Of a stretch of DNA of 10,448 bases, positions 1 through 10,448 are shown piece after piece. Positions within the stretch are counted from its first letter, which is position 1, and every line of letters begins with the position of its first letter. Origin of the DNA: a virus. The stretch is from the UHGV virus genome UHGV-0227753; one strand, written 5' to 3'. The notes beneath the pieces were generated by a model. The model was given only the letters and a program-made list of their open reading frames with translations. It had not been told where the DNA came from and made no database searches. The position numbers and the translations under genes were made by a program.

Positions 1-1563
1 ATCTTTCGGTGTTAATGTTATATCCGCAGTCAGTGCTTTCCCGTTAACTTTTCGGTTAGATGGTACCCTGCCATTCGCATTGTCATTCGCTGCTTTAACT
101 GCCTTCGGTGTCGCGGCAAGCGTTTCAGATGTGCTGTTGGTTGCACTACTGAGCTGGACTATCCCCTTTTTCGTCGTGCTCGCATCCTCAAGCGCCACGG
201 CGGATGCAATATCCTCTGCCCGTTTTGCCGCTGTCTCAGCGCGCGTTGCTGCGGATTCTGCCGTACTTTTGCTCTGTGCTGCCGCCGTCGCACTGCCAGC
301 AGCCTCTGTTGCCTTCGTGGATGCCGTCGTGGCGCTGCCCTTCGCTGCTGACGCCTGTCTGGTCGCCTCATCTTTTGAAGCAGACGCCGATGAGGCCGAT
401 GACGCCGCCGAACTGGCGGACGATGCGGCAGCCGTTTTTGAGGATTCTGCGCTGGTTTCCGACGCTTTCGCGTTCGTTTCGGATGTCTTCGCTGCGGAAG
501 CTGACCTCGCTGCTGCGCTGGCCTGTTCAGTGGCTTCGCCAGCCTTCGTTGTGGCTGTTGAAGCGGATGATGCGGCGCTTTCTGCCGATTTTCCGGCGGC
601 GATGGCACTGGCTGAGGCCTGCCCGGCACTTGTTGACGCGGCACTGGCAGACGACGCAGCCGCTGTTTTTGAGCCTGCCGCAGCTGAGGCGCTCTGTCCC
701 GCTGCCGTCTCAGAAGACCTGGCGTTCGTCTCGGACGTTTTTGCCGCCTTCGCGGAATTTGCTGCCGCCGTTGCCGAGGAAGCTGCGCTGCTGGCGCTCG
801 AGGATGCGTTCGTTTCTGATGATTTTGCCGCCTCTTTTGAAGCCGACGCATCCCGGGCTGAGGTGGCAGCTTCTGACGCTTTCGTAGTCGCGGTGGATGC
901 AGAAGTGGCTGCTGATTGTTGTGACGCTGCAGCATTCGTTTCTGACGTTTTCGCGGCACTGGCACTGGTAGCTGCCGCGCTTTTTGAGGACTCTGCAGCG
1001 GCAGCACTTTTTTCCGCTTCAGTGGCCTTTGTTGATGCCGTTCCTGCGCTGGAAGACGCTGACTGAGCCGACGAAGCGGCCTGTCCGGCTGACGTGCTGG
1101 CTGCGCGTGCTGAGCCTGCAGCATCAGTCGCATGGGTTGCCGCCTCACGGGCAGATGTGCCGGCATCGCCGGCTGACTTCTTCGCGGCTGCCGTGTTCTG
1201 TGCCACTGCGGACGCGTTACGCGCCACCTCTTCCACCATCAGTTCAAAACGTCGCAATGCCTCCGGACGGGCATCATCCTCCGTCATGGCACCGAGAAAA
1301 TCATTCAGCGTACCGGGTTGAGAATCTTCATACACGGTGATGGTCCCGGCATGTGACGGCGGGAATCCCTCCACCAACAGAATAACGCTGTACTGACCGT
1401 ACTCAACGTCCATGCTGTAACGCCCGGCTTCATCCGGATTTTCTGAGGCCAGCGTGTTCACCACCACCGTGGTGCTGTTACGTTTTGCTTTCAGCTGGAT
1501 TGTGCAGTTCTGTACCGGTTTTCCTGTGCCGTCTTTCAGTACACCTGAAATCTTTACTGCCAT
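1..1563 (-). CDS. stf: Side tail fiber protein Stf, N-terminal ~521 codons; 3' end continues beyond window position 1
   Basis: Hand translation of the minus strand from ATG at 1563..1561 gives MAVKISGVLKDGTGKPVQNCTIQLKAKRNSTTVVVNTLASENPDEAGRYSMDVEYGQYSVILLVEGFPPSHAGTITVYEDSQPGTLNDFLGAMTEDDARPEALRRFELMVEEVARNASAVAQNTAAAKKSAGDAGTSAREAATHAADAADSARAASTSAGQAASSAQSASS..., matching the lambda Stf N-terminus as I recall it. The same frame (codons at plus positions 3k+1..3k+3) has no stop in the segments I checked (1..360 and 1051..1563), and 121..360 reads ...RQASAAKGSATTASTKATEA...AGSATAAAQSKSTAESAATRAETAAKRAEDIASAVALEDASTTKKGIVQLSSATNSTSETLAATPKAVKAANDNANGRVPSNRKVNGKALTADITLTPKD. It is absent from the ORF track only because its stop lies outside the window. 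Confidence 0.9.
   Translation of the reverse strand, partial: MAVKISGVLKDGTGKPVQNCTIQLKAKRNSTTVVVNTLASENPDEAGRYSMDVEYGQYSVILLVEGFPPSHAGTITVYEDSQPGTLNDFLGAMTEDDARPEALRRFELMVEEVARNASAVAQNTAAAKKSAGDAGTSAREAATHATDAAGSARAASTSAGQAASSAQSASSSAGTASTKATEAEKSAAAAESSKSAAATSASAAKTSETNAAASQQSAATSASTATTKASEAATSARDASASKEAAKSSETNASSSASSAASSATAAANSAKAAKTSETNARSSETAAGQSASAAAGSKTAAASSASAASTSAGQASASAIAAGKSAESAASSASTATTKAGEATEQASAAARSASAAKTSETNAKASETSAESSKTAAASSASSAASSASSASASKDEATRQASAAKGSATTASTKATEAAGSATAAAQSKSTAESAATRAETAAKRAEDIASAVALEDASTTKKGIVQLSSATNSTSETLAATPKAVKAANDNANGRVPSNRKVNGKALTADITLTPKD
240..1200 (-). repeat. Low-complexity Ala/Ser/Thr-rich repeat region inside stf, with imperfect direct DNA repeats
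   Basis: Imperfect direct repeats of the form GCRTTCGTYTCBGAYGTYTTYGC at about 471..495, 723..746 and 932..956 on the plus strand. On the minus strand they encode the recurring Stf peptide motif (KTSETNA-like). High GC and Ala-codon bias leave long open frames in several wrong frames on both strands. Boundaries are approximate. Confidence 0.6.
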
Positions 1564-1574
1564 ATTCACCCCAC

Positions 1575-1600
1575 AAAAAAGCCCGCCTGAACCGGCGGGC
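1575..1600 (-). terminator. Intrinsic (rho-independent) terminator-like hairpin between lom and stf
   Basis: Minus-strand sequence GCCCGCC-GGTTCA-GGCGGGC followed directly by TTTTTTG: a 7-bp GC-rich stem, 6-nt loop and T-run, 4 nt... more precisely the stem is plus 1581..1600 and the T-run is the plus A-run at 1575..1580. It lies 27 nt downstream of the lom stop and about 11 nt upstream of the stf ATG. Confidence 0.6.
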
Positions 1601-1627
1601 TGTCATAACACTGTGTTACCTGGCTAA

Positions 1628-2227
1628 TCAGAACTTATAACCGACACCCACGATGAAACCGTCAGTGCGCCAGTCGCCACTGCCGGAGCCTTCATAAGCA
1701 ATATCAATGGCCACGGACTCGGTCGGGTTAAACTGCACGCCAGCCCCCCACGCCAGAGACGTGTTGCTGTGGCGACCGTCATCACTTCCGGTCAGCACGT
1801 CGTGCGTTTTCCCCTTGTTGTCAGTTACGCGGAGATAATCCCCGGAGAAAGTCGACACACGGCTGTAAGCCATACCCGCCATCGCATACGCGCTGAACCA
1901 TTCATTCACGCGCACAGACGGCCCCACCATCACGCTGAACCAGCGGTTACGCACGGAATCTTCATGCCAGCGGGTATCGCTGTAACGGGTAAGCTGGCGA
2001 TTCTTGTCTCCTGCATAGCTGAATGACGTCACCAGCCCCAGTGTGTCCGTAAACTCATAACGGTATTTCACGTTAATCCCGTTAAGATCATCGCTGCCGG
2101 GAACGTTCGTCGAGGCATGAAGATACCCCGCGCTCAGCGTGGACTGATGTTCAGATGCCCATGCAGGCGCACCGGATACGGCCAGACAAATGGCTGCGGA
2201 CAAAATGGCGGCATAAAGTTTACGCAT
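1628..2227 (-). CDS. lom: Lom outer membrane protein (Ail/Lom/PagC family beta-barrel), lambda-type moron
   Basis: 199-aa [33 protein letters not shown]...[10 protein letters not shown], near-identical to lambda Lom as recalled. N-terminal signal peptide with an AWA-SE cleavage site and a C-terminal aromatic residue (…GYKF) typical of outer-membrane beta-barrels. A GAGAGG Shine-Dalgarno sits about 5 nt upstream of the ATG. Position between J and stf matches lambda. Confidence 0.95.
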
Positions 2228-2296: not shown

Positions 2297-5200
2297 TCAA
2301 CGAATACTGATGCCGGAAGCGGCTTTTTTGGTCACAATCACCGTACAGTCGGTGATATTACCTGCCCACTGATTGCCTTTATGGAAAACCTTAAACTCCA
2401 GAGTGACGCTTCCCCTGCCACTCGGCATATCAATAACCGCACTGTAGCTACCGGGAATGGCCCCTTTAGTTTCTCTGGATGCGATTAATACACCGTTTTT
2501 GCGAACTTCAAAACCATAACCCGTGTATCTTGTACCTCCCGGGTTATTACCACTTCCCGGATCGCTATACGCTATTCCGTTAAAGATAATGGGCGGAATA
2601 ATGATTTGACGGTCAAAGTTATGATCATCGCTGATGGTGACTGTAACCGTCCCGTTTGGTGTTTCCGTGTTACCCCACGTACCAGCCTGTTTCGGAAATG
2701 ATTTGGATACAGCTTTAACGAAGTCACCTCTGACCTGAGTCGCCTCCAGCATGCCCTTAATCGTACAGTTTTCATTTACCGTGACATTGTTGAGCGTCCC
2801 GGCGTTCGCATTCACACTGCCACTGATATCCGCATTTTTAGCGGTCAGCTTTCCGTCTGATGTCAGGGAAAATACCGGAGGACTGCCACCACTGGTAATG
2901 GTGGGAGCCGTCAGGCGCTTCAGGAACACGTCGTTCATGAATATCTGATTGCCCTGCGCCACAAACATCGGCGTTTCATTCCCGTTTGCCGGGTCAATAA
3001 ATGCGATACGGTTAGCGGCAACCAGAAACTGACTCAGTTTGCCTTCCTCCGTGTCCTCCATGCTGAGGCCAATACCCGCGACATAATGTTTGCCGTCTTT
3101 GGTCTGCTCAATTTTGACAGCCCACATGGCATTCCACTTATCGTTGGCGTCCTTCCACTCTTTCGAAAACTCCTCCAGTCTGCTGGCGTTATCCTCCGTC
3201 AGCTCGACTTTTTCCAGCAGCTCCTTGCCGAGATGGGATTCGGTTATCTTGCCTTTGAAAAAATCCAGGTAACCTTCCGCATCATCGCTCGCCCGACCGA
3301 CGGCCTCCACGAATGCCGATTTGCCAACGGTGTTCACACTGCGGATATAAAAGTAATAATCATGGCCCGGTTTGATATTGATACTGGCGGCTATCCAGTA
3401 CAGCGCCGTGCCAAGATAGCGGGCTGTGGTTTCAACCTGCCTGATATCCGCAATCCGCTTTTCCGAGAACCAGAACTCAAACTGTACCGTCGGATCATAA
3501 ACGGCAAGATGCGGCGTTGCGGTTATCTGAAAATAGCCCGGCGTCAGCTCAATCCGCGACGGTGCTGCCGGTGCGGCAATCCGGAACGATACCGATGCCG
3601 GATCGCCCTGCTGCCCCCAGGCATTTGCCGCCCGGACTGTCAGCCTGTAGTTTCCCAGCGCCAGTTGCGTGAAGCGGTATGTGGTTTCCGTCGTCCGGGC
3701 CGTGCTGACCAGCCGCTCACTGCCGTCATCCGCTGTTACGGTCAGACGGAGCAGGAAGCTCACGCCCTTCACCACCTTCGGCGTGTCCCAGCGCGCCAGC
3801 ACCTGATATTCCCCGCTGTCTGCGGTGACTTCGGCGGTCAGGTGCTGCACCGCTGGCGGCGTGACACCATTCACCGTGCCGCTCTGGTCGCCGTCAAAGT
3901 GCGCCCCGTTATCCACGATGGCTTCTTTTTCCGGTACATGCTGCACGGCGGTGATGGCATACGTGCCGTCATCGTTATCACGGATACTCACACAGCGGAA
4001 CAGGCGCTGACGCAACGTCGGCAACTTCAGCCCCCACACACTGTATTCTGCAACGCCGTCAGGAACCCGGTTCACTTTCACCTTAAGTCCGTCGGTGACG
4101 GACTGAACCTCCACGCTGACCGGATTACCACTTCCGTCAACCAGGCTTATCAGCGTGGTACCGGAGGATGGCAGCGTGATTTCACGGTCGAGCGTCAGCG
4201 TCCGGGTCTGGCTGTTTACCGCCAGCACGCGCCCGCCGGTGCGGATACCGGCATAGTCATCATCACAGATTTCAATGACATCGCCCGGTACATGGCGAAG
4301 CCCTTCTGCGCCCACGCTGAAGTCCACGGTCTGCGTTTCCAGCAGTTCTGTTTTAATCAGCCACAGCCCGGCGCGGTGTGCCTGCCCCCGGCTGGTACAG
4401 CCAAAAGCATCCATCTTCGTGACGTTACGACCGTAACGGGCAATGGCCTGCGTGTCCTCCACAAGCTCTGTTGCCGTCTCCCAGCCATTGTCCGGGTCAA
4501 TCCAGTTCACCTCAACGGCATTATGGCGGTCCTTCAGGGCGCTGAAGCTGTAGCGGAACGGCGCGCCATCATCCGGCATCACCACATTACTGCGGTTATA
4601 GGTCCACACCTTATCCGACGGTCGGTCCTGCACGAACGTCAGCGTCTGCCCGTTCCATACCGGCATACAGCGCATCGCCGAGCAGAAATCACTGAGCACA
4701 TCCCACGCCTTGCGCTGCGTGGTCAGCCAGGCATTACAGGTGATGCGCGGCTCCGTGCCGCCAAAGCCGTCCGGCACCGACTGGTCGCAGTACTGGCCGA
4801 TGACATACAGCGCCCATTTATCCACATCCGCCGCACCAAGACGTTTCCCCATGCCGTAGCGCGGATGGGTCAGCATATCCCACAGACACCAGGCCGGGTT
4901 GTTGCTGTATGCCGGTTTTAACGTTCCGTCCCAGATACCGCTGTATTGCCGCGTCTGCGGGTTATAGTTCGACGGCACCTGCAGAATGCGCCCGCGAAGA
5001 TGATAATTACGGCTCACCTGCTGGCTGCCGAACTGCTCCGAGTCCACCTGCACGCCGACCAGTACCGTGTTCGGGTAGCACTGTTTCACATCGATGATTT
5101 CGGTGTATGACGACCAGAGCGTTTTGTTCTGCAGCTGGTCTGTGGTGCTGTCCGGCGTCATCCTGCGCATCCGGATATTAAACGGGCGCGGCGGCAGGTT

Positions 5201-5710
5201 ATCCACCACCACCGAGGCCAGATACTGCGACGTGGTTTTGCCCTTAATGGTGATGTCTTTTTCCGTCACCCAGCCACCGTTACGTTGTATCTGAACCAGC
5301 AGGCGGACTTCCGACGGATTCCGGTCACCCTTTGAGGTGGTTTCCACCAGTGCCTGCACACCGAAGGTAAAGCGCAGACGGTCGATGTTTGCAGACGTGA
5401 TGGTCCGGGTAATCGGCGTGTCGTACTTCACTTCCGTACCCAGCACCGTCTCGGAGCCGGAGGATTCAAATCCCTCCGGCGGTGTCTGCTCCTGCTCACC
5501 TGCCCGGAAAACCACCGTGACACCGGAGATATTGGTATTCCCCTCACTGTCCAGCACTGGCGTACTGTTCAGCAGCACACTTTTTAATCCGTCCACCGGA
5601 CCTTCAATCGGCCCTTCACTGATGGCGTCTATCACGCTCAGCATCTGGGATGATTTCAGGTTGTCCTTCGCTTCGCGCGGGGTATGCCCCTTACTGCTGC
5701 CTTTACCCAT
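2297..5710 (-). CDS. J: Tail tip attachment / host specificity protein J (central tail fiber)
   Basis: 1137-aa ORF starting [54 protein letters not shown]..., collinear with and near-identical to lambda J (1132 aa as recalled) over roughly the first 1000 residues. Position after I and before lom matches lambda. The C-terminal ~100-160 residues do not match the lambda sequence I recall. Confidence 0.97.
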
Positions 5711-5732: not shown

Positions 5733-5752
5733 AAACCGCCCTGAGGCGGTTT
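5733..5752 (-). promoter_or_regulatory. Stem-loop in the 60-nt I-J intergenic spacer (possible attenuator or RNA stability element)
   Basis: Plus AAACCGCC-CTGA-GGCGGTTT: an 8-bp stem with 4-nt loop. On the minus strand it is followed by a U-rich stretch (TGTCGTTTCTGG) and then the J start region. Function is not established from sequence alone. Confidence 0.25.
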
Positions 5753-5770
5753 CACATAAAACGTTTTTCA

Positions 5771-6442
5771 TCAACGACCAATCACCACAACCTGACCACC
5801 GTCCCCCTCGTCTGCCGTGCTGATCTCCTGAGAAGCCACCCGCGACCCCACGCGCATTTCACCGTACAGAACAGGCAGAACATTGCCCTGGGCAACCATG
5901 TTATCCAGTGAGGAGAAATAGGTGTTCTGCTTACCGTTATCCGTTGTCTGTGTACGGGGAGTTCTAGCTTTCGGTGCCAGCATCTGCGCCACACCACCAA
6001 GTACCATACTGGCACCGAGAGAAAACAGGATACCGGTCATACCACCGGCCCCAATGGCTGCCCCCCATGCTGCAAGGGTGGCTCCGGCAGTAAAGAATGA
6101 TCCGGCAATGGCGGTAGCCCCCAGAACAATCTGGAATACGCCCCCTGACTTGGCCCCGGCGACTCTGGGAACAATATGAATCACAGCGCCGTCAGGCAGA
6201 ACCTCATGTAACTGCGCCGTCAATCCGGACGTGCTGACGTCCCGCCCGGCAATCCGTACCTGATACCAGCCGTCGCTCAGTTTCTGACGAAACGCCGGGA
6301 GCTGTGTGGCCAGCGCCCGGATGGCTTCAGCCCCCGTTTTCACACGAAGGTCGATGCGGCGGCCAAATCGTTGTAAATCCCCGTAAAGGCAGATGCGCGC
6401 CATGCCCGGTGACGCCAGAGGGAGTGTGTGCGTCGCTGCCAT
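5771..6442 (-). CDS. I: Tail tip assembly protein I
   Basis: 223-aa ORF MAATHTLPLASPGMARICLYGDLQRFGRRIDLRVKTGAEAIRALATQL...VVVIGR; length and sequence match lambda I as recalled. Its start overlaps the 3' end of K by 103 nt in a different frame, as in lambda. Confidence 0.95.
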   Translation of the reverse strand: MAATHTLPLASPGMARICLYGDLQRFGRRIDLRVKTGAEAIRALATQLPAFRQKLSDGWYQVRIAGRDVSTSGLTAQLHEVLPDGAVIHIVPRVAGAKSGGVFQIVLGATAIAGSFFTAGATLAAWGAAIGAGGMTGILFSLGASMVLGGVAQMLAPKARTPRTQTTDNGKQNTYFSSLDNMVAQGNVLPVLYGEMRVGSRVASQEISTADEGDGGQVVVIGR

Positions 6443-8115: not shown

Positions 8116-10448
8116 CGTCCACCTCCGGAGAACAGACCACCATCACGGGACTGCTGTTGCATAAAGTCCGCTGCTGCTTTTTTCCCGAGGTCATAAACCA
8201 CCTTCAGGGCAGCCGGACCTATCTGCCCGTTCGTGCCATCGTTATTGATCTCGATGTTGTACTGCGGGGCAAACATCGCCATACCTGAACCACCAATATC
8301 CGCCACAACCCCCAGCTTACCGTCAGCACCACGACGCAGAGGCAGAATGGCTTCAGGCCCAGCTTCCCCCATCACACCTGCACCTTTTGCAAAAGCAAAA
8401 AACGTCGGACGGTTAACCACCGTGCCACTGTAGCGACTCAAATCAGCAGACTGATAAACACCACCATCAGCATTGGGCGTCACACTGGCAGTTGCTGCAC
8501 TCCCCCAGCCAAACGCCGAACCAATCCCCTTAACTGCCTGCATCATGGACATCTGAGCCATGATTTTTGCCAGATCAGAAAGGAGCGAGGCGGTAAAAGA
8601 TTTGAAGTTCAGTTTTCCGGTGGTACAGAATGTAGCCAGTGCATTACCTGCACTATTAAATGCCGCTGTAAGCATCTGCTCCGCAGTGCCTGCCGCATTA
8701 TCCGCATCTGCCGTGAAATTCTGAAACGCCCGCATGGCACCGTTTTTCCAGTTACCCTGAGCAATTTCAAGCTGTTGCCAGTAACGGCGATTCTCATTCA
8801 GTTGCCTGTTCAGGCTCTCCGTCAGCGCCTGCTCGGCCTTTCTGTAGTCATCCGTGTTATATGTCCCTTTCTGCTCACTATCCCGCCTCAACTGCTCCAG
8901 CTGTTGCTGGTATTTCTGGCGAAGGCTCAGTTGTACCTGATATCGCTGCCGCTGCTGATCACCCATACCCACCGTGGCGATATCCAGGTCATGTTGCTGA
9001 CGCTGAGCGCGCTCTTCTTCAGCCAGTTGACTGGTCAGCTGAATTGTTTTTTTCTTCAGATCGTTGAGTGCCGTCTGTTTCTGAAGCTCCTGCTGTTTTA
9101 CATCCAGCAGCGTCAGTGCCTGAATCAGTTCATCTTTACGGGCCAGCACACTCTTTTCATCTGCCGTCAGTTTTTTCCCGTCCAGGTCGCTGATGCGCTG
9201 CTGCAGAGCCAGAAGCTGTTTATGCGCTTCTGTCATCCTGTCAGTGGCAATGCCTGCTGACTGTCTGGCAGCAGCAATCTGTCCTTCCACCTGTGCCTGT
9301 TGCTGGCTGTACTGCAGCAATAACCGGGTGGCCTCATCATTACGGGTTTCGCGTGTTTTTTTCTTACCGGATGCCAGGGCTTTCTCGTAACGTTCATTTT
9401 CACGTTGTATCGCCGCATCCCTGACAGCCTGATCGGCGTACTGCATGGCATTAATACGCGCAATTTCACGCTGATGTCGTGCTGCTTCCGTTTCATTCAT
9501 CCGGTTCAGTGCAGCATTTTCAGCATTACGGCGTTTCTGTTGCTCCTGATAATTCCGCTCTGCCTGCTCTTTTGCATCCTGCAAATCCTTCTGGCGTTTT
9601 TTCTCCTGAAGCTCGTTAAGACGCTGCTGATCGTATTCAACCTGAGAAGATGATGCCGTCCAGGGGAGTCTTTTCGCCCGCGATACTTTCTCCTGCAAAG
9701 TGGCAATCTGCGCATCCAGCGAATCTTCACGACCAATATTCATGGCCGCATCCCAGAACTGCTTCCACCAGTCAGACAAGGTTTGCAGCGTACTACCCAG
9801 CGCATTGAGGTTATTATCAATATCCGCAGTACGCCGACCGGTTTCCTCTGCCAGTGCAGACATGGCTATCCGTGCCGCATCACTGGACCGCCCCTGCTCT
9901 CCAAGGATGCGTATCTGCTCAAGCTGAGTGGCAGTAAGAAAATGCAGCTCATTGTCCAGAGCCTTCGCGGCATTTACAGGATCATCCTTCAGCCGCTTAA
10001 ACTGATTTATGGTATCGCTGATCGACTGGCCAACCGATCGCTCCATCTGTGCGGCAGCTCTCGCCACCATACCGATATCGTTTCCACGAAATGCACCACT
10101 CCCCACCACCTGAGCCAGCGCACCGGCTGCAGCATGTTGCGTGATACCATTCCCGGAAATAGCACGACTGAGCGTCCACAGCTGCCCGGCAGTGACTCCG
10201 GCATAATGCCCCGTCAGCGACAGCTGGCGGTTAAATTCTTCCCCCTCCTTCTGACCGTCATACCAGGCTTTACCCAGACCATAGACGGCCGCGGTAATAC
10301 CGCCAATAACCCCGCCCAGCATCATGCCTTTCGGTGACATCAGTGTGTCTATCCATCCGGCACGGTTAGCCAGCGTTATCCCGGATCCCCTCAGCGCCCC
10401 TAAATTGCCGCGGGCCAGTTCACCTATCAGAACGCCTATCTCCTGGCG
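8112..10448 (-). CDS. H: Tail tape measure protein H, C-terminal ~778 codons; 5' end lies beyond the window end
   Basis: The frame is open from the window edge (10448) to the stop at 8112..8114; I checked 10341..10448 by hand and found no stop. The track start at 10340 is an internal Met. The C-terminus ...NNDGTNGQIGPAALKVVYDLGKKAAADFMQQQSRDGGLFSGGGR matches the lambda H C-terminus as recalled. The body is a long Q/E/R/K-rich predicted coiled-coil typical of tape-measure proteins. Position immediately upstream of M matches lambda. Confidence 0.93.
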   Translation of the reverse strand, partial: RQEIGVLIGELARGNLGALRGSGITLANRAGWIDTLMSPKGMMLGGVIGGITAAVYGLGKAWYDGQKEGEEFNRQLSLTGHYAGVTAGQLWTLSRAISGNGITQHAAAGALAQVVGSGAFRGNDIGMVARAAAQMERSVGQSISDTINQFKRLKDDPVNAAKALDNELHFLTATQLEQIRILGEQGRSSDAARIAMSALAEETGRRTADIDNNLNALGSTLQTLSDWWKQFWDAAMNIGREDSLDAQIATLQEKVSRAKRLPWTASSSQVEYDQQRLNELQEKKRQKDLQDAKEQAERNYQEQQKRRNAENAALNRMNETEAARHQREIARINAMQYADQAVRDAAIQRENERYEKALASGKKKTRETRNDEATRLLLQYSQQQAQVEGQIAAARQSAGIATDRMTEAHKQLLALQQRISDLDGKKLTADEKSVLARKDELIQALTLLDVKQQELQKQTALNDLKKKTIQLTSQLAEEERAQRQQHDLDIATVGMGDQQRQRYQVQLSLRQKYQQQLEQLRRDSEQKGTYNTDDYRKAEQALTESLNRQLNENRRYWQQLEIAQGNWKNGAMRAFQNFTADADNAAGTAEQMLTAAFNSAGNALATFCTTGKLNFKSFTASLLSDLAKIMAQMSMMQAVKGIGSAFGWGSAATASVTPNADGGVYQSADLSRYSGTVVNRPTFFAFAKGAGVMGEAGPEAILPLRRGADGKLGVVADIGGSGMAMFAPQYNIEINNDGTNGQIGPAALKVVYDLGKKAAADFMQQQSRDGGLFSGGGR

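Follow-up and report, generated by a model that had tools for sequence, protein, structure and literature searches.

An stf-like reading frame with a long heptad rod and a non-lambda module at the end of a lambdoid tail operon

Described side tail fibers and the present locus

Ur-lambda carries trimeric side fibers on its virion that give faster adsorption via an outer-membrane receptor, and both the domain map and the mode of assembly of its Stf protein have been described (PMC12617516). Ur-lambda Stf is 774 aa long; in laboratory lambda PaPa, Stf is split by a frameshift into orf-401 and orf-314. Lambda swaps stf/tfa sequence with the Rac and Qin prophages by homologous recombination (PMC3945230), and it is StfR of Rac (E. 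coli K-12, 1120 aa, WP_000279097.1) that is the closest named relative of the gene described here. The S fibers of Mu and P1 and the H fiber of P2 share with it a motif that precedes their variable parts. These fibers belong to contractile-tail phages, have unrelated N-terminal attachment domains and are without the Ala/Ser heptad rod, and their likeness to our protein is limited to shared motifs and modules.

We analyzed a stretch of 10,448 nucleotides of viral DNA (UHGV-0227753; hereafter, “the window”), at one end of which lies an stf-like frame (Table 1). We consider it very probable that this frame is the 5' half of the stf gene of a lambdoid E. coli prophage, and that it is a mosaic of known fiber modules. 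The genes on the minus strand follow the canonical late-operon order (H, M, L, K, I, J, lom, stf), in which stf closes the lambdoid tail operon behind J and lom. Pfam confirms J and Lom, and M, L and I share 93-98% identity with lambda. Full translation of the minus frame gives 521 codons with zero stops, so that the uninterrupted stf frame claimed in the original prediction is borne out, including the middle part (361..1050) that had been left untranslated there. At the other end of the window, the start at 10340 given for the tape-measure ORF in the ORF list is not a truncation: that reading frame stays open up to the edge of the window.

The encoded protein matches WP_208207754.1 (Stf, 1052 aa, RefSeq) with 100% identity over the first 521 aa of the latter, and the 1563 nt of stf DNA occur with 0 differences in four public E. 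coli loci (L001, L007, L008, L012) and with a 1-nt difference in a fifth (L003). WP_208207754.1 and near-identical proteins (E. coli MIN11, strain 205, others) are annotated as “prophage tail fiber N-terminal domain-containing protein”. The prophages that bear them have the same neighboring lom and, in the part of stf that the window covers, no difference beyond 0-1 nt, but slight differences set them apart, namely in the 3' portion of gene I and in an additional 339-bp ORF between I and J; the J allele of the MIN11 prophage is also unlike that of the window. Among public records there is no exact match to the whole window; the best reach 99.2-99.8% identity and show a mosaic difference in the vicinity of gene I. 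A search for an exact match to the window's J protein likewise returned no record. Prophages in ~5000 of 5426 complete E. coli genomes match the window, and the stf frame has more than 6000 relatives in databases. The sequence, family and mosaic evolution of this stf are already documented. It is a common E. coli prophage tail-fiber gene, of little importance beyond its correct annotation.

Between lom and stf, a terminator scan detected a hairpin with an 8-bp stem (7 G-C pairs) that is followed by TTTTTT. The end of the stem lies 17 nt upstream of the stf ATG, with a GGGGTGA ribosome-binding stretch after the T-run; lambda has a hairpin at the same site before stf, with a different loop.

Table 1. 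Features of the stf region, in window coordinates
Feature	Position	Strand	Basis
stf (side tail fiber gene), codons 1-521	1..1563	-	open frame, protein and DNA identity, codon-position pattern
Collar (attachment) domain, aa 1-91	1291..1563	-	within PF08400 match; limits from PMC12617516
Flexible linker, aa 92-101 (inferred)	1261..1290	-	alignment to Ur-lambda Stf domain map (PMC12617516)
Proximal coiled-coil rod (predicted), aa 102-466	166..1260	-	heptad periodicity and homology to lambda Stf
In-frame insertion relative to lambda stf, 315 nt (105 codons, 15 heptads), aa 304-408	340..654	-	blastn blocks
Conserved junction motif GIVQLSSATNSTSETLAATPKAVK, aa 467-490	94..165	-	last lambda-like stretch; shared exchange point between fiber modules
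First 31 residues of non-lambda middle module, aa 491-521, AANDNANGRVPSNRKVNGKALTADITLTPKD	1..93	-	no DNA homology to lambda
Terminator-like hairpin and T-run, between lom and stf	1580..1601	-	terminator scan

Collar and rod

The protein begins with an N-terminal tail-attachment (collar) domain of the Stf/PF08400 family, 93% identical to that of Ur-lambda Stf. PF08400 matches residues 1-134 (E=1.8e-72; 242 bits vs a Pfam cut-off of 26.6), and residues 1-94 align end to end with the Ur-lambda tail fiber chain, i.e., the Stf collar, of PDB 9E7M/9MGH (E=1.3e-52); NCBIfam gave no match for Stf or Tfa. By homology to Ur-lambda Stf, the protein would form trimeric fibers, in which the N-terminal domains would make a collar round the tail at the junction of tube and tip and a short linker would lead into a long Ala/Ser-rich heptad coiled coil. 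Trimerization, collar formation, fiber length and receptor are here extrapolated from Ur-lambda.

The long proximal rod that follows the collar is predicted to be a coiled coil from its heptads and from its homology to the proximal coiled coil of lambda Stf (aa 102-393 in the domain map of PMC12617516). It is rich in Ala, Ser and Thr and repeats the heptad pattern S-A-x-x-A-x-x in a continuous register, with a residue autocorrelation at lag 7 of 0.39 vs 0.20 in shuffles (z=10.9) and high values at lags 14-35 as well. Direct repeats in the DNA of the rod are spaced mostly by multiples of 21 nt. Tandem Repeats Finder reported only three short, trivial arrays; the periodicity of the rod is that of the protein, and its DNA is not a clean tandem repeat.

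The rod also contains an insertion relative to lambda, which is absent from the original prediction. By blastn, nt 1-909 of the window's stf correspond to lambda nt 1-909 and nt 1214-1469 to lambda nt 899-1154, and the heptad register runs unbroken through the inserted stretch. The rod of lambda and Ur-lambda is shorter than the window's by these 15 heptads, an estimated ~15 nm. The same rod length as in the window, with the junction motif at residue 467, is found in Rac StfR and in several 50%-identity cluster representatives. By analogy, the rod would hold the distal, receptor-binding part of the fiber away from the tail.

Stf-type rods fall into discrete length classes, most of them whole numbers of heptads apart (relative to the window, shorter by 15 (lambda), 16, 29, 31 and 32 heptads); six of nine classes are in heptad phase and the other three out of phase. 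We tentatively raise the possibility, which we think rather less than even, that fiber reach is a selected and quantized trait that arises via in-register recombination between degenerate 21-nt repeats and may be adapted to how thick the O-antigen or capsule layer of the host is. An unsystematic literature search found no description of quantized rod length. If such quantization exists, the window would belong to the long (StfR-type) class.

Junction motif and the module beyond it

Homology to lambda at the DNA level, with ~80% nucleotide identity, stops at stf nt 1469 (window position 95, lambda nt 1154), and the protein diverges from lambda directly after AVK (residue 490); blastn finds no DNA homology to lambda in window 1..93. 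The original prediction had proposed a non-lambda segment at 1..130 that follows an LAATPKAVKAA motif. Alignment with lambda confirms that the sequence past AVK departs from lambda and that the non-lambda end is real, but the limit at 130 was ~35 nt too far. The boundary lies at 93-95, and window 94-165 still encodes the conserved lambda-like GIVQLSSATNSTSETLAATPKAVK.

Thirty-two diverse cluster representatives of the Stf type contain this motif, and at least four unrelated continuations come after it. Residues 440-504, which include it, align with residues 90-155 of the phage Mu tail fiber protein S (5YVQ/8JU3, E=1e-9), over a stretch that contains KGxVQLxSATxSxSETLAATxKAVKxAxDNAN. At GIVQLSSATNSTSETLAATPKAVK, the end of the proximal rod and the site of the Ur-lambda hinge, the gene changes to a non-lambda module. 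Functional exchangeability adjoining this junction has been shown experimentally: a lambda-P2 STF chimera with its fusion point at lambda R393, 8 residues past AVK385, is functional (PMC11338833). The natural junctions, which follow AVK in Stf and aa ~990 in J, adjoin the fusion points of engineered lambda-based delivery particles; prophage alleles of this kind therefore offer a readily available supply of exchangeable host-range modules.

The original prediction had also set the open frame against the PaPa frameshift, a contrast that turns out to be inapplicable. The frameshift is at about codon 395 of lambda stf (nt ~1185), 31 nt downstream of the point at which homology ends; since this site lies in the replaced part, the window has no counterpart of it. 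From its sequence, the gene is best read as a typical recombinational mosaic and not as a lambda stf with a repaired frameshift. The lambda frameshift is a poor yardstick for stf genes that change modules before that site.

Ur-lambda Stf and Rac StfR both part from the window's gene, or from its full-length relatives, at this junction. Ur-lambda has the same gene order, and its rod and junction motif are ~85% identical to the window's, but its aa 386-531 (hinge and distal coiled coil) are replaced in the full-length relatives by an unrelated section of ~335 aa (aa 491-825), which is 11% identical to lambda. Rac StfR is 93% identical over aa 1 to ~490, with a matching N-terminal domain and rod, and it likewise stands after lom and before a tfa gene. 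Past AVK, however, StfR continues with a Mu/P1-type segment (SAYDNAEKRLQKDQNGADIPDK…) and the window with AANDNANGRVPSNRKVNGKAL…; its middle section is therefore a different module, and the window's gene is not of the Rac StfR type (SAYDNAEKRLQKDQ… in StfR vs AANDNANGRVPSNRK… in the window). The C-terminal ~355 aa of StfR are 80% identical to those of the full-length relatives.

The window's module occurs at 94-95% nucleotide identity in phage phi458, phage Cyrano and phage CMS-2020a, and in 99 of the database proteins retrieved; it falls into PHROG tail-fiber families 3299, 21552 and 6722. The gene has sub-modules in common with phi458, Cyrano, Rac StfR, ev099 and 9g, and a sub-module further along in the full-length relatives can be aligned with residues 321-415 of Mu S'. 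At lax thresholds, the sole Pfam match to the middle module was a weak one to gp37_C, and the peptide MDETNR was not found in the literature.

The frame runs off the window at position 1, at codon 521 of ~1052 expected, so that the window by itself does not tell whether the whole gene is intact. Judged from genomes with identical DNA, the ~335-aa non-lambda module would be followed by a tip of the lambda/T4 gp37 type, the folding of which would be helped by a downstream Tfa chaperone. We infer that the source genome continues like these relatives, although its stf may have a different 3' end, because the best whole-window records fall short of identity and are mosaic around gene I.

The original prediction suggested instead a different distal fiber or receptor-recognition module. 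In its strong form, the fiber would be wholly different distally, with a receptor-binding domain unrelated to that of lambda that binds another receptor via another fold. The absence of lambda similarity past AVK and the unrelated continuations behind the same motif in other Stf proteins are in keeping with this, as is the fact that proteins with the window-type continuation have several C-terminal architectures (P0032, P0112, P0144 and phi458, the last with an invertible segment) and part into at least four past aa ~673-734. The 29-31 residues visible in the window consequently fail to fix the tip, and, in general, the receptor-binding tip cannot be predicted from the few residues behind the junction motif. 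We nevertheless regard a wholly different distal fiber as unlikely. Every relative with identical DNA has a C-terminal tip of the lambda/T4 gp37 family (PDB 2XGF, E=2.4e-83; Collar PF07484 and His-rich repeats), the tip family that Ur-lambda also has. These tips are 83-86% identical to lambda outside a variable specificity segment of ~75 aa, and the accompanying Tfa is 95% identical to lambda Tfa. In these relatives, the part that differs from lambda is an internal insert and not the tip, and the predicted receptor-recognition module is not borne out. The specificity segment itself is only 32% identical to that of lambda and Ur-lambda, and the receptor may therefore well differ within the gp37-type tip that we favor.

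We also considered that stf is open in the window but broken further on, by a frameshift, IS insertion, deletion or contig break, so that no side fiber is made. Codons 1-521 are all of stf that the window shows, prophage tail-fiber regions are often damaged, and many lambdoid prophages are defective. In K-12 Rac, the lom beside stfR is split by an IS5-like element; the window's relatives have a frameshifted recombinase just after tfa; and the stf of strain 205 carries a RefSeq pseudogene flag (“incomplete”), yet its translation is full length. Such a remnant is very unlikely given that all five of the public loci that match the stf DNA have a complete 1052-codon ORF followed by a 194-aa tfa (Caudo_TAP) chaperone gene, that each of the window's remaining tail genes (H, M, L, K, I, J, lom) has an open frame, and that the substitution pattern of the stf frame points to purifying selection.

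Substitution pattern and overlapping frames

Frame length alone is weak evidence for a gene at this locus, because the stretch is rich in GC and in Ala/Ser and has other frames that stay open over 227-335 codons. In the stf frame, mismatches relative to lambda at codon positions 1/2/3 number 21/21/72, and 63 codon changes are synonymous vs 38 non-synonymous, a pattern that indicates purifying selection on this frame.

Three alternative frames reach the lengths given above, orf206b is annotated on the opposite strand in lambda's own record, some deposited annotations or gene callers place antisense ORFs where stf should be (ev099, phi458, L009), and the antisense frame of ORF 80-1066 has 52 synonymous vs 49 non-synonymous changes; yet it is scarcely credible that the open frame is a compositional artifact of a stretch rich in GC and Ala codons, with the real gene, if any, being an overlapping ORF, since solved-structure homologs, Pfam support and the heptad pattern are confined to the stf frame, which also has the best synonymous to non-synonymous ratio (63/38), since four of the five other frames have 10-14 synonymous vs 87-91 non-synonymous changes, and since the 52/49 value is an expected by-product if the wobble positions of that antisense frame coincide with those of stf, as the substitution pattern suggests.

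The overlapping ORFs 80-1066 (+), 204-887 (+) and 159-1166 (-) were accordingly rejected as genes on their substitution pattern. The Ala/Ser-rich rod gives rise to long spurious ORFs on both strands, by which gene callers and some deposited annotations have been misled.

Reality of the stf reading frame

Full translation of window 1-1563 (minus strand) yields 521 codons with zero stops, and the uninterrupted frame claimed by the original prediction holds, including in the previously untranslated middle. The protein starts with the lambda Stf-like MAVKISGVLKDGTGKPVQNCTIQLKA… and meets the window edge at …LAATPKAVKAANDNANGRVPSNRKVNGKALTADITLTPKD. An open frame is weak evidence by itself here, because the stretch is GC-rich (57-63%) and dense in Ala/Ser codons and three further frames stay open for 227-335 codons. 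That the stf frame is the real coding frame rests on homology, on codon-position mismatches and on the ratio of synonymous to non-synonymous changes. The protein matches Pfam PF08400 (E=1.8e-72) and the Ur-lambda Stf collar (PDB chain, E=1.3e-52) and has >6000 database relatives (E<=1e-20). Over two ungapped blocks aligned to lambda, the 164 mismatches fall 31/27/106 at codon positions 1/2/3. In the first block, the stf frame shows 63 synonymous and 38 non-synonymous codon changes, versus 10-14 and 87-91 in four of the five other frames; the fifth, antisense frame gives 52/49, which would be explained as a by-product if that frame is taken as wobble-aligned with stf.

We rejected the three overlapping ORFs (227-335 aa; Table) as genes and regard them as compositional by-products of the rod. 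Antisense ORFs have been called in place of the stf N-terminus in the deposited ev099 and phi458 annotations and in the gene calls of a further locus (L009), and lambda orf206b is the same sort of call.

Modular structure of the side tail fibre

The window stf is a case of classical tail-fibre mosaicism. Homology to lambda DNA ends at stf nt 1469 (window position 95, lambda stf nt 1154); the non-lambda distal segment predicted at 1-130 exists, with its boundary placed by lambda alignment at 93-95. In lambda PaPa, the orf-401 frame (…DETNRKA) gives way to the orf-314 frame (PLDSPALTG…) at a frameshift near lambda codon 395 (nt 1185). This site is 31 nt past the point where homology ends, so the window has no counterpart at which an intact stf could be told from a frameshifted one. 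Of the proposed contrast between an intact stf and frameshifted lambda, the uninterrupted frame stands, and the comparison does not hold at that site. In full-length relatives, similarity to lambda resumes in the C-terminal part, and the tip matches the T4 gp37 tip crystal structure 2XGF (E=2.4e-83) and contains a Pfam Collar domain. The non-lambda part is thus an internal section, and the relatives' tip, judged by these matches, belongs to the lambda/gp37 family and diverges in its specificity segment. A different receptor-recognition module, as had been proposed, is not borne out by these relatives: the non-lambda segment begins an internal module and is no evidence of another receptor-binding fold. 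As a whole, the earlier interpretation is partly supported. The gp37/Stf tip and chaperone family has already been described (PMC9659904).

Residues 102-~460 form a rod of 35% Ala, 22% Ser and 12% Thr with an unbroken S-A-x-x-A-x-x heptad register. Its lag-7 autocorrelation is 0.39 (shuffles, 0.20; z=10.9), each multiple of 7 up to 35 gives a peak, and its degenerate DNA repeats are spaced mostly at multiples of 21 nt. This periodicity agrees with the 2025 domain map of Ur-lambda Stf, which assigns aa 1-91 to a dodecameric collar at the gpV/gpM junction, aa 92-101 to a linker, aa 102-393 to a proximal coiled coil, aa 394-422 to a hinge and aa 423-525 to a distal domain, and which includes an OmpC-binding receptor-binding domain (PMC12617516). 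The insertion relative to lambda (Table) is exactly 15 heptads and preserves the register. At the textbook value of ~0.15 nm per residue, the window rod would be ~15 nm longer than that of lambda. Among 50%-identity cluster representatives with the same N-terminal domain, the distance from rod start to junction motif falls into nine length classes, three of them out of phase and six sharing one heptad phase (the window's, then 15 [lambda], 16, 29, 31 and 32 heptads shorter). Such heptad-quantised variation is a mildly new point, to be read as a lead and not a finding. K-12 Rac StfR, with 93% identity over aa 1-~490, belongs to the window's rod-length class, and on these grounds the window fragment would be assigned to the StfR type, not the lambda type.

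The proximal rod ends in GIVQLSSATNSTSETLAATPKAVK (aa 467-490), a motif common to Stf-type proteins with at least four unrelated continuations (Table); phage Mu fibre protein S also aligns with it. The window-type continuation leads into a domain KDIGTLNSVT[I/M]SFSGGAGWFKL… in 98 of 99 proteins, which split past aa ~673-734 into several architectures; in one of these, phi458, a Pin invertase accompanies an invertible segment at the fibre end. Parts of the middle section recur at 94-98% nucleotide identity in phi458 (lambdoid), Cyrano and CMS-2020a (108-kb), Rac StfR, ev099, 2H10 and others, and fall in existing PHROG tail-fibre families. A ~170-aa domain within the middle module has a copy of the short motif [V/I]NGK…DI.LTP.[D/N]IG on either side; the window encodes the first copy as its last element, and such repeats could act as in-frame exchange points for the domain. 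Homologous recombination is known to swap stf/tfa sequence between lambda and Rac or Qin, and stf modules are documented to have moved between unrelated phages in the distant past (PMC3945230). Lambda-P2 STF chimeras with their fusion point at lambda R393 (PMC11338833), 8 residues past the natural junction, were functional. RefSeq already contains the protein sequence, and neither the family nor the mechanism is new.

Features of the stf region, its relatives and the neighbouring genes (aa, residues of Stf)
Feature	Location	Strand	Remark
Collar	aa 1-91		93% identical to lambda
Linker and first rod part	aa 92-303		85% identical to lambda, ungapped; DNA 87.5%, nt 1-909
Insertion relative to lambda	aa 304-408		315 nt, 105 codons
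Rod part after the insertion, with junction motif	aa 409-490		85% identical to lambda 304-385; DNA 80.5%
Middle module	aa 491-825		11% identical to lambda 386-531; unrelated
Full-length relative	aa 826-925		86% identical to lambda
Full-length relative	aa 926-1000		32% identical to lambda
Full-length relative	aa 1001-1052		83% identical to lambda
Tfa of relative			95% identical to lambda Tfa
Continuation, lambda type			VVMDETN…PLDSPALTGTPT
Continuation, window type			AANDNANGRVPSNRKVNGKAL…
Continuation, motif-repeating type			AAYDLANGKYTAQDATTAQKGIVQLSSA…
Continuation, Mu/P1-like type			…AEKRLQKDQNGADIPDK
Flanking motif copies	L001 Stf aa 506-523, 714-733		first: aa 506-521 = window 1-48
Rod-length survey items	window 166-1260	-	plus proteins P0121-P0270
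Overlapping ORF	80-1066	+	inside Ala/Ser-rich rod
Overlapping ORF	204-887	+	inside Ala/Ser-rich rod
Overlapping ORF	159-1166	-	inside Ala/Ser-rich rod
Terminator-like hairpin and T-run	1580-1601	-	between lom and stf
Ail/Lom gene	1628-2227	-	bracketed by hairpins 2255-2278 and 1580-1601
J (central tail fibre) gene	2297-5710	-	C-terminal divergence at 2297-2740
Post-tfa region	L001 12911-15547; L003 19046-21682		outside window; adjoins chromosomal prfC

Public relatives and sequence beyond position 1

No record identical to the whole window was found in public data; the best matches reach 99.2-99.8%, with a mosaic difference around gene I. Four public loci (E. coli MIN11 and three draft assemblies) have exactly the window's 1563 nt of stf, and a fifth differs by one base. 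All five carry an intact stf of 1052 codons and, directly after it, a Caudo_TAP tail fibre assembly gene encoding 194 aa. Identity over the window fragment is 100% in fourteen partial database proteins (P0002-P0015, 819-911 aa), and the partial proteins compared directly, P0008 (100% identical) and P0016 (99%), align end to end with the architecture of the full-length relatives. The stf of the window genome is very probably intact.

In the two annotated complete genomes among these five, the genes beyond tfa are a Pin-like recombinase with a frameshift, a defence gene for a TIR-domain reverse transcriptase, a dinI-like gene and prfC. The region of the TIR-domain anti-phage reverse transcriptase is defence-gene cargo at the prophage end, and the remains of the recombinase suggest that a fibre-inversion system resembling those of phi458 and Rac pinR has been lost.

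Neighbouring genes of the tail operon

The window spans, on the minus strand, the distal genes of a lambdoid tail operon (H, M, L, K, I, J, an Ail/Lom gene and stf), in which tape-measure gene H is truncated by the window end with its frame open. Matching prophages occur in ~5000 of 5426 complete E. coli genomes; there are matches in many cultured lambdoid phages too. Over nt 1-2970 (aa 1-990), the DNA for the J product (1137 aa) is 95.4% identical to that of lambda J. Past aa 990 the homology is lost, with identity of only ~30% in the last ~147 residues, so this phage carries a J receptor-binding domain different from lambda's, one that may not bind LamB. The break falls just past lambda gpJ residue 964, the fusion point of engineered gpJ chimeras (PMC11338833).

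The Ail/Lom protein is only 44% identical to lambda Lom, and its two flanking terminator-like hairpins fit a moron-like gene acquired independently; a consensus scan found no sigma-70-like promoter. Lambda has a hairpin at the equivalent lom-stf site with a different loop, and from established knowledge of lambda late transcription we infer that Q-modified polymerase would read through such sites.

Another local mosaic junction spans the 3' part of gene I together with the I-J spacer (window ~5741-6243). The closest prophages, 99.2-99.5% identical elsewhere, diverge in the 3' part of gene I and carry an additional 339-bp ORF between I and J (L003 10721-11059, L007 12059-12397), whose 112-aa product has zero Pfam matches. 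This ORF is absent from the window, whose I protein is 98% lambda-like; the window's arrangement recurs at 99.77% identity in a metagenome contig (L013).
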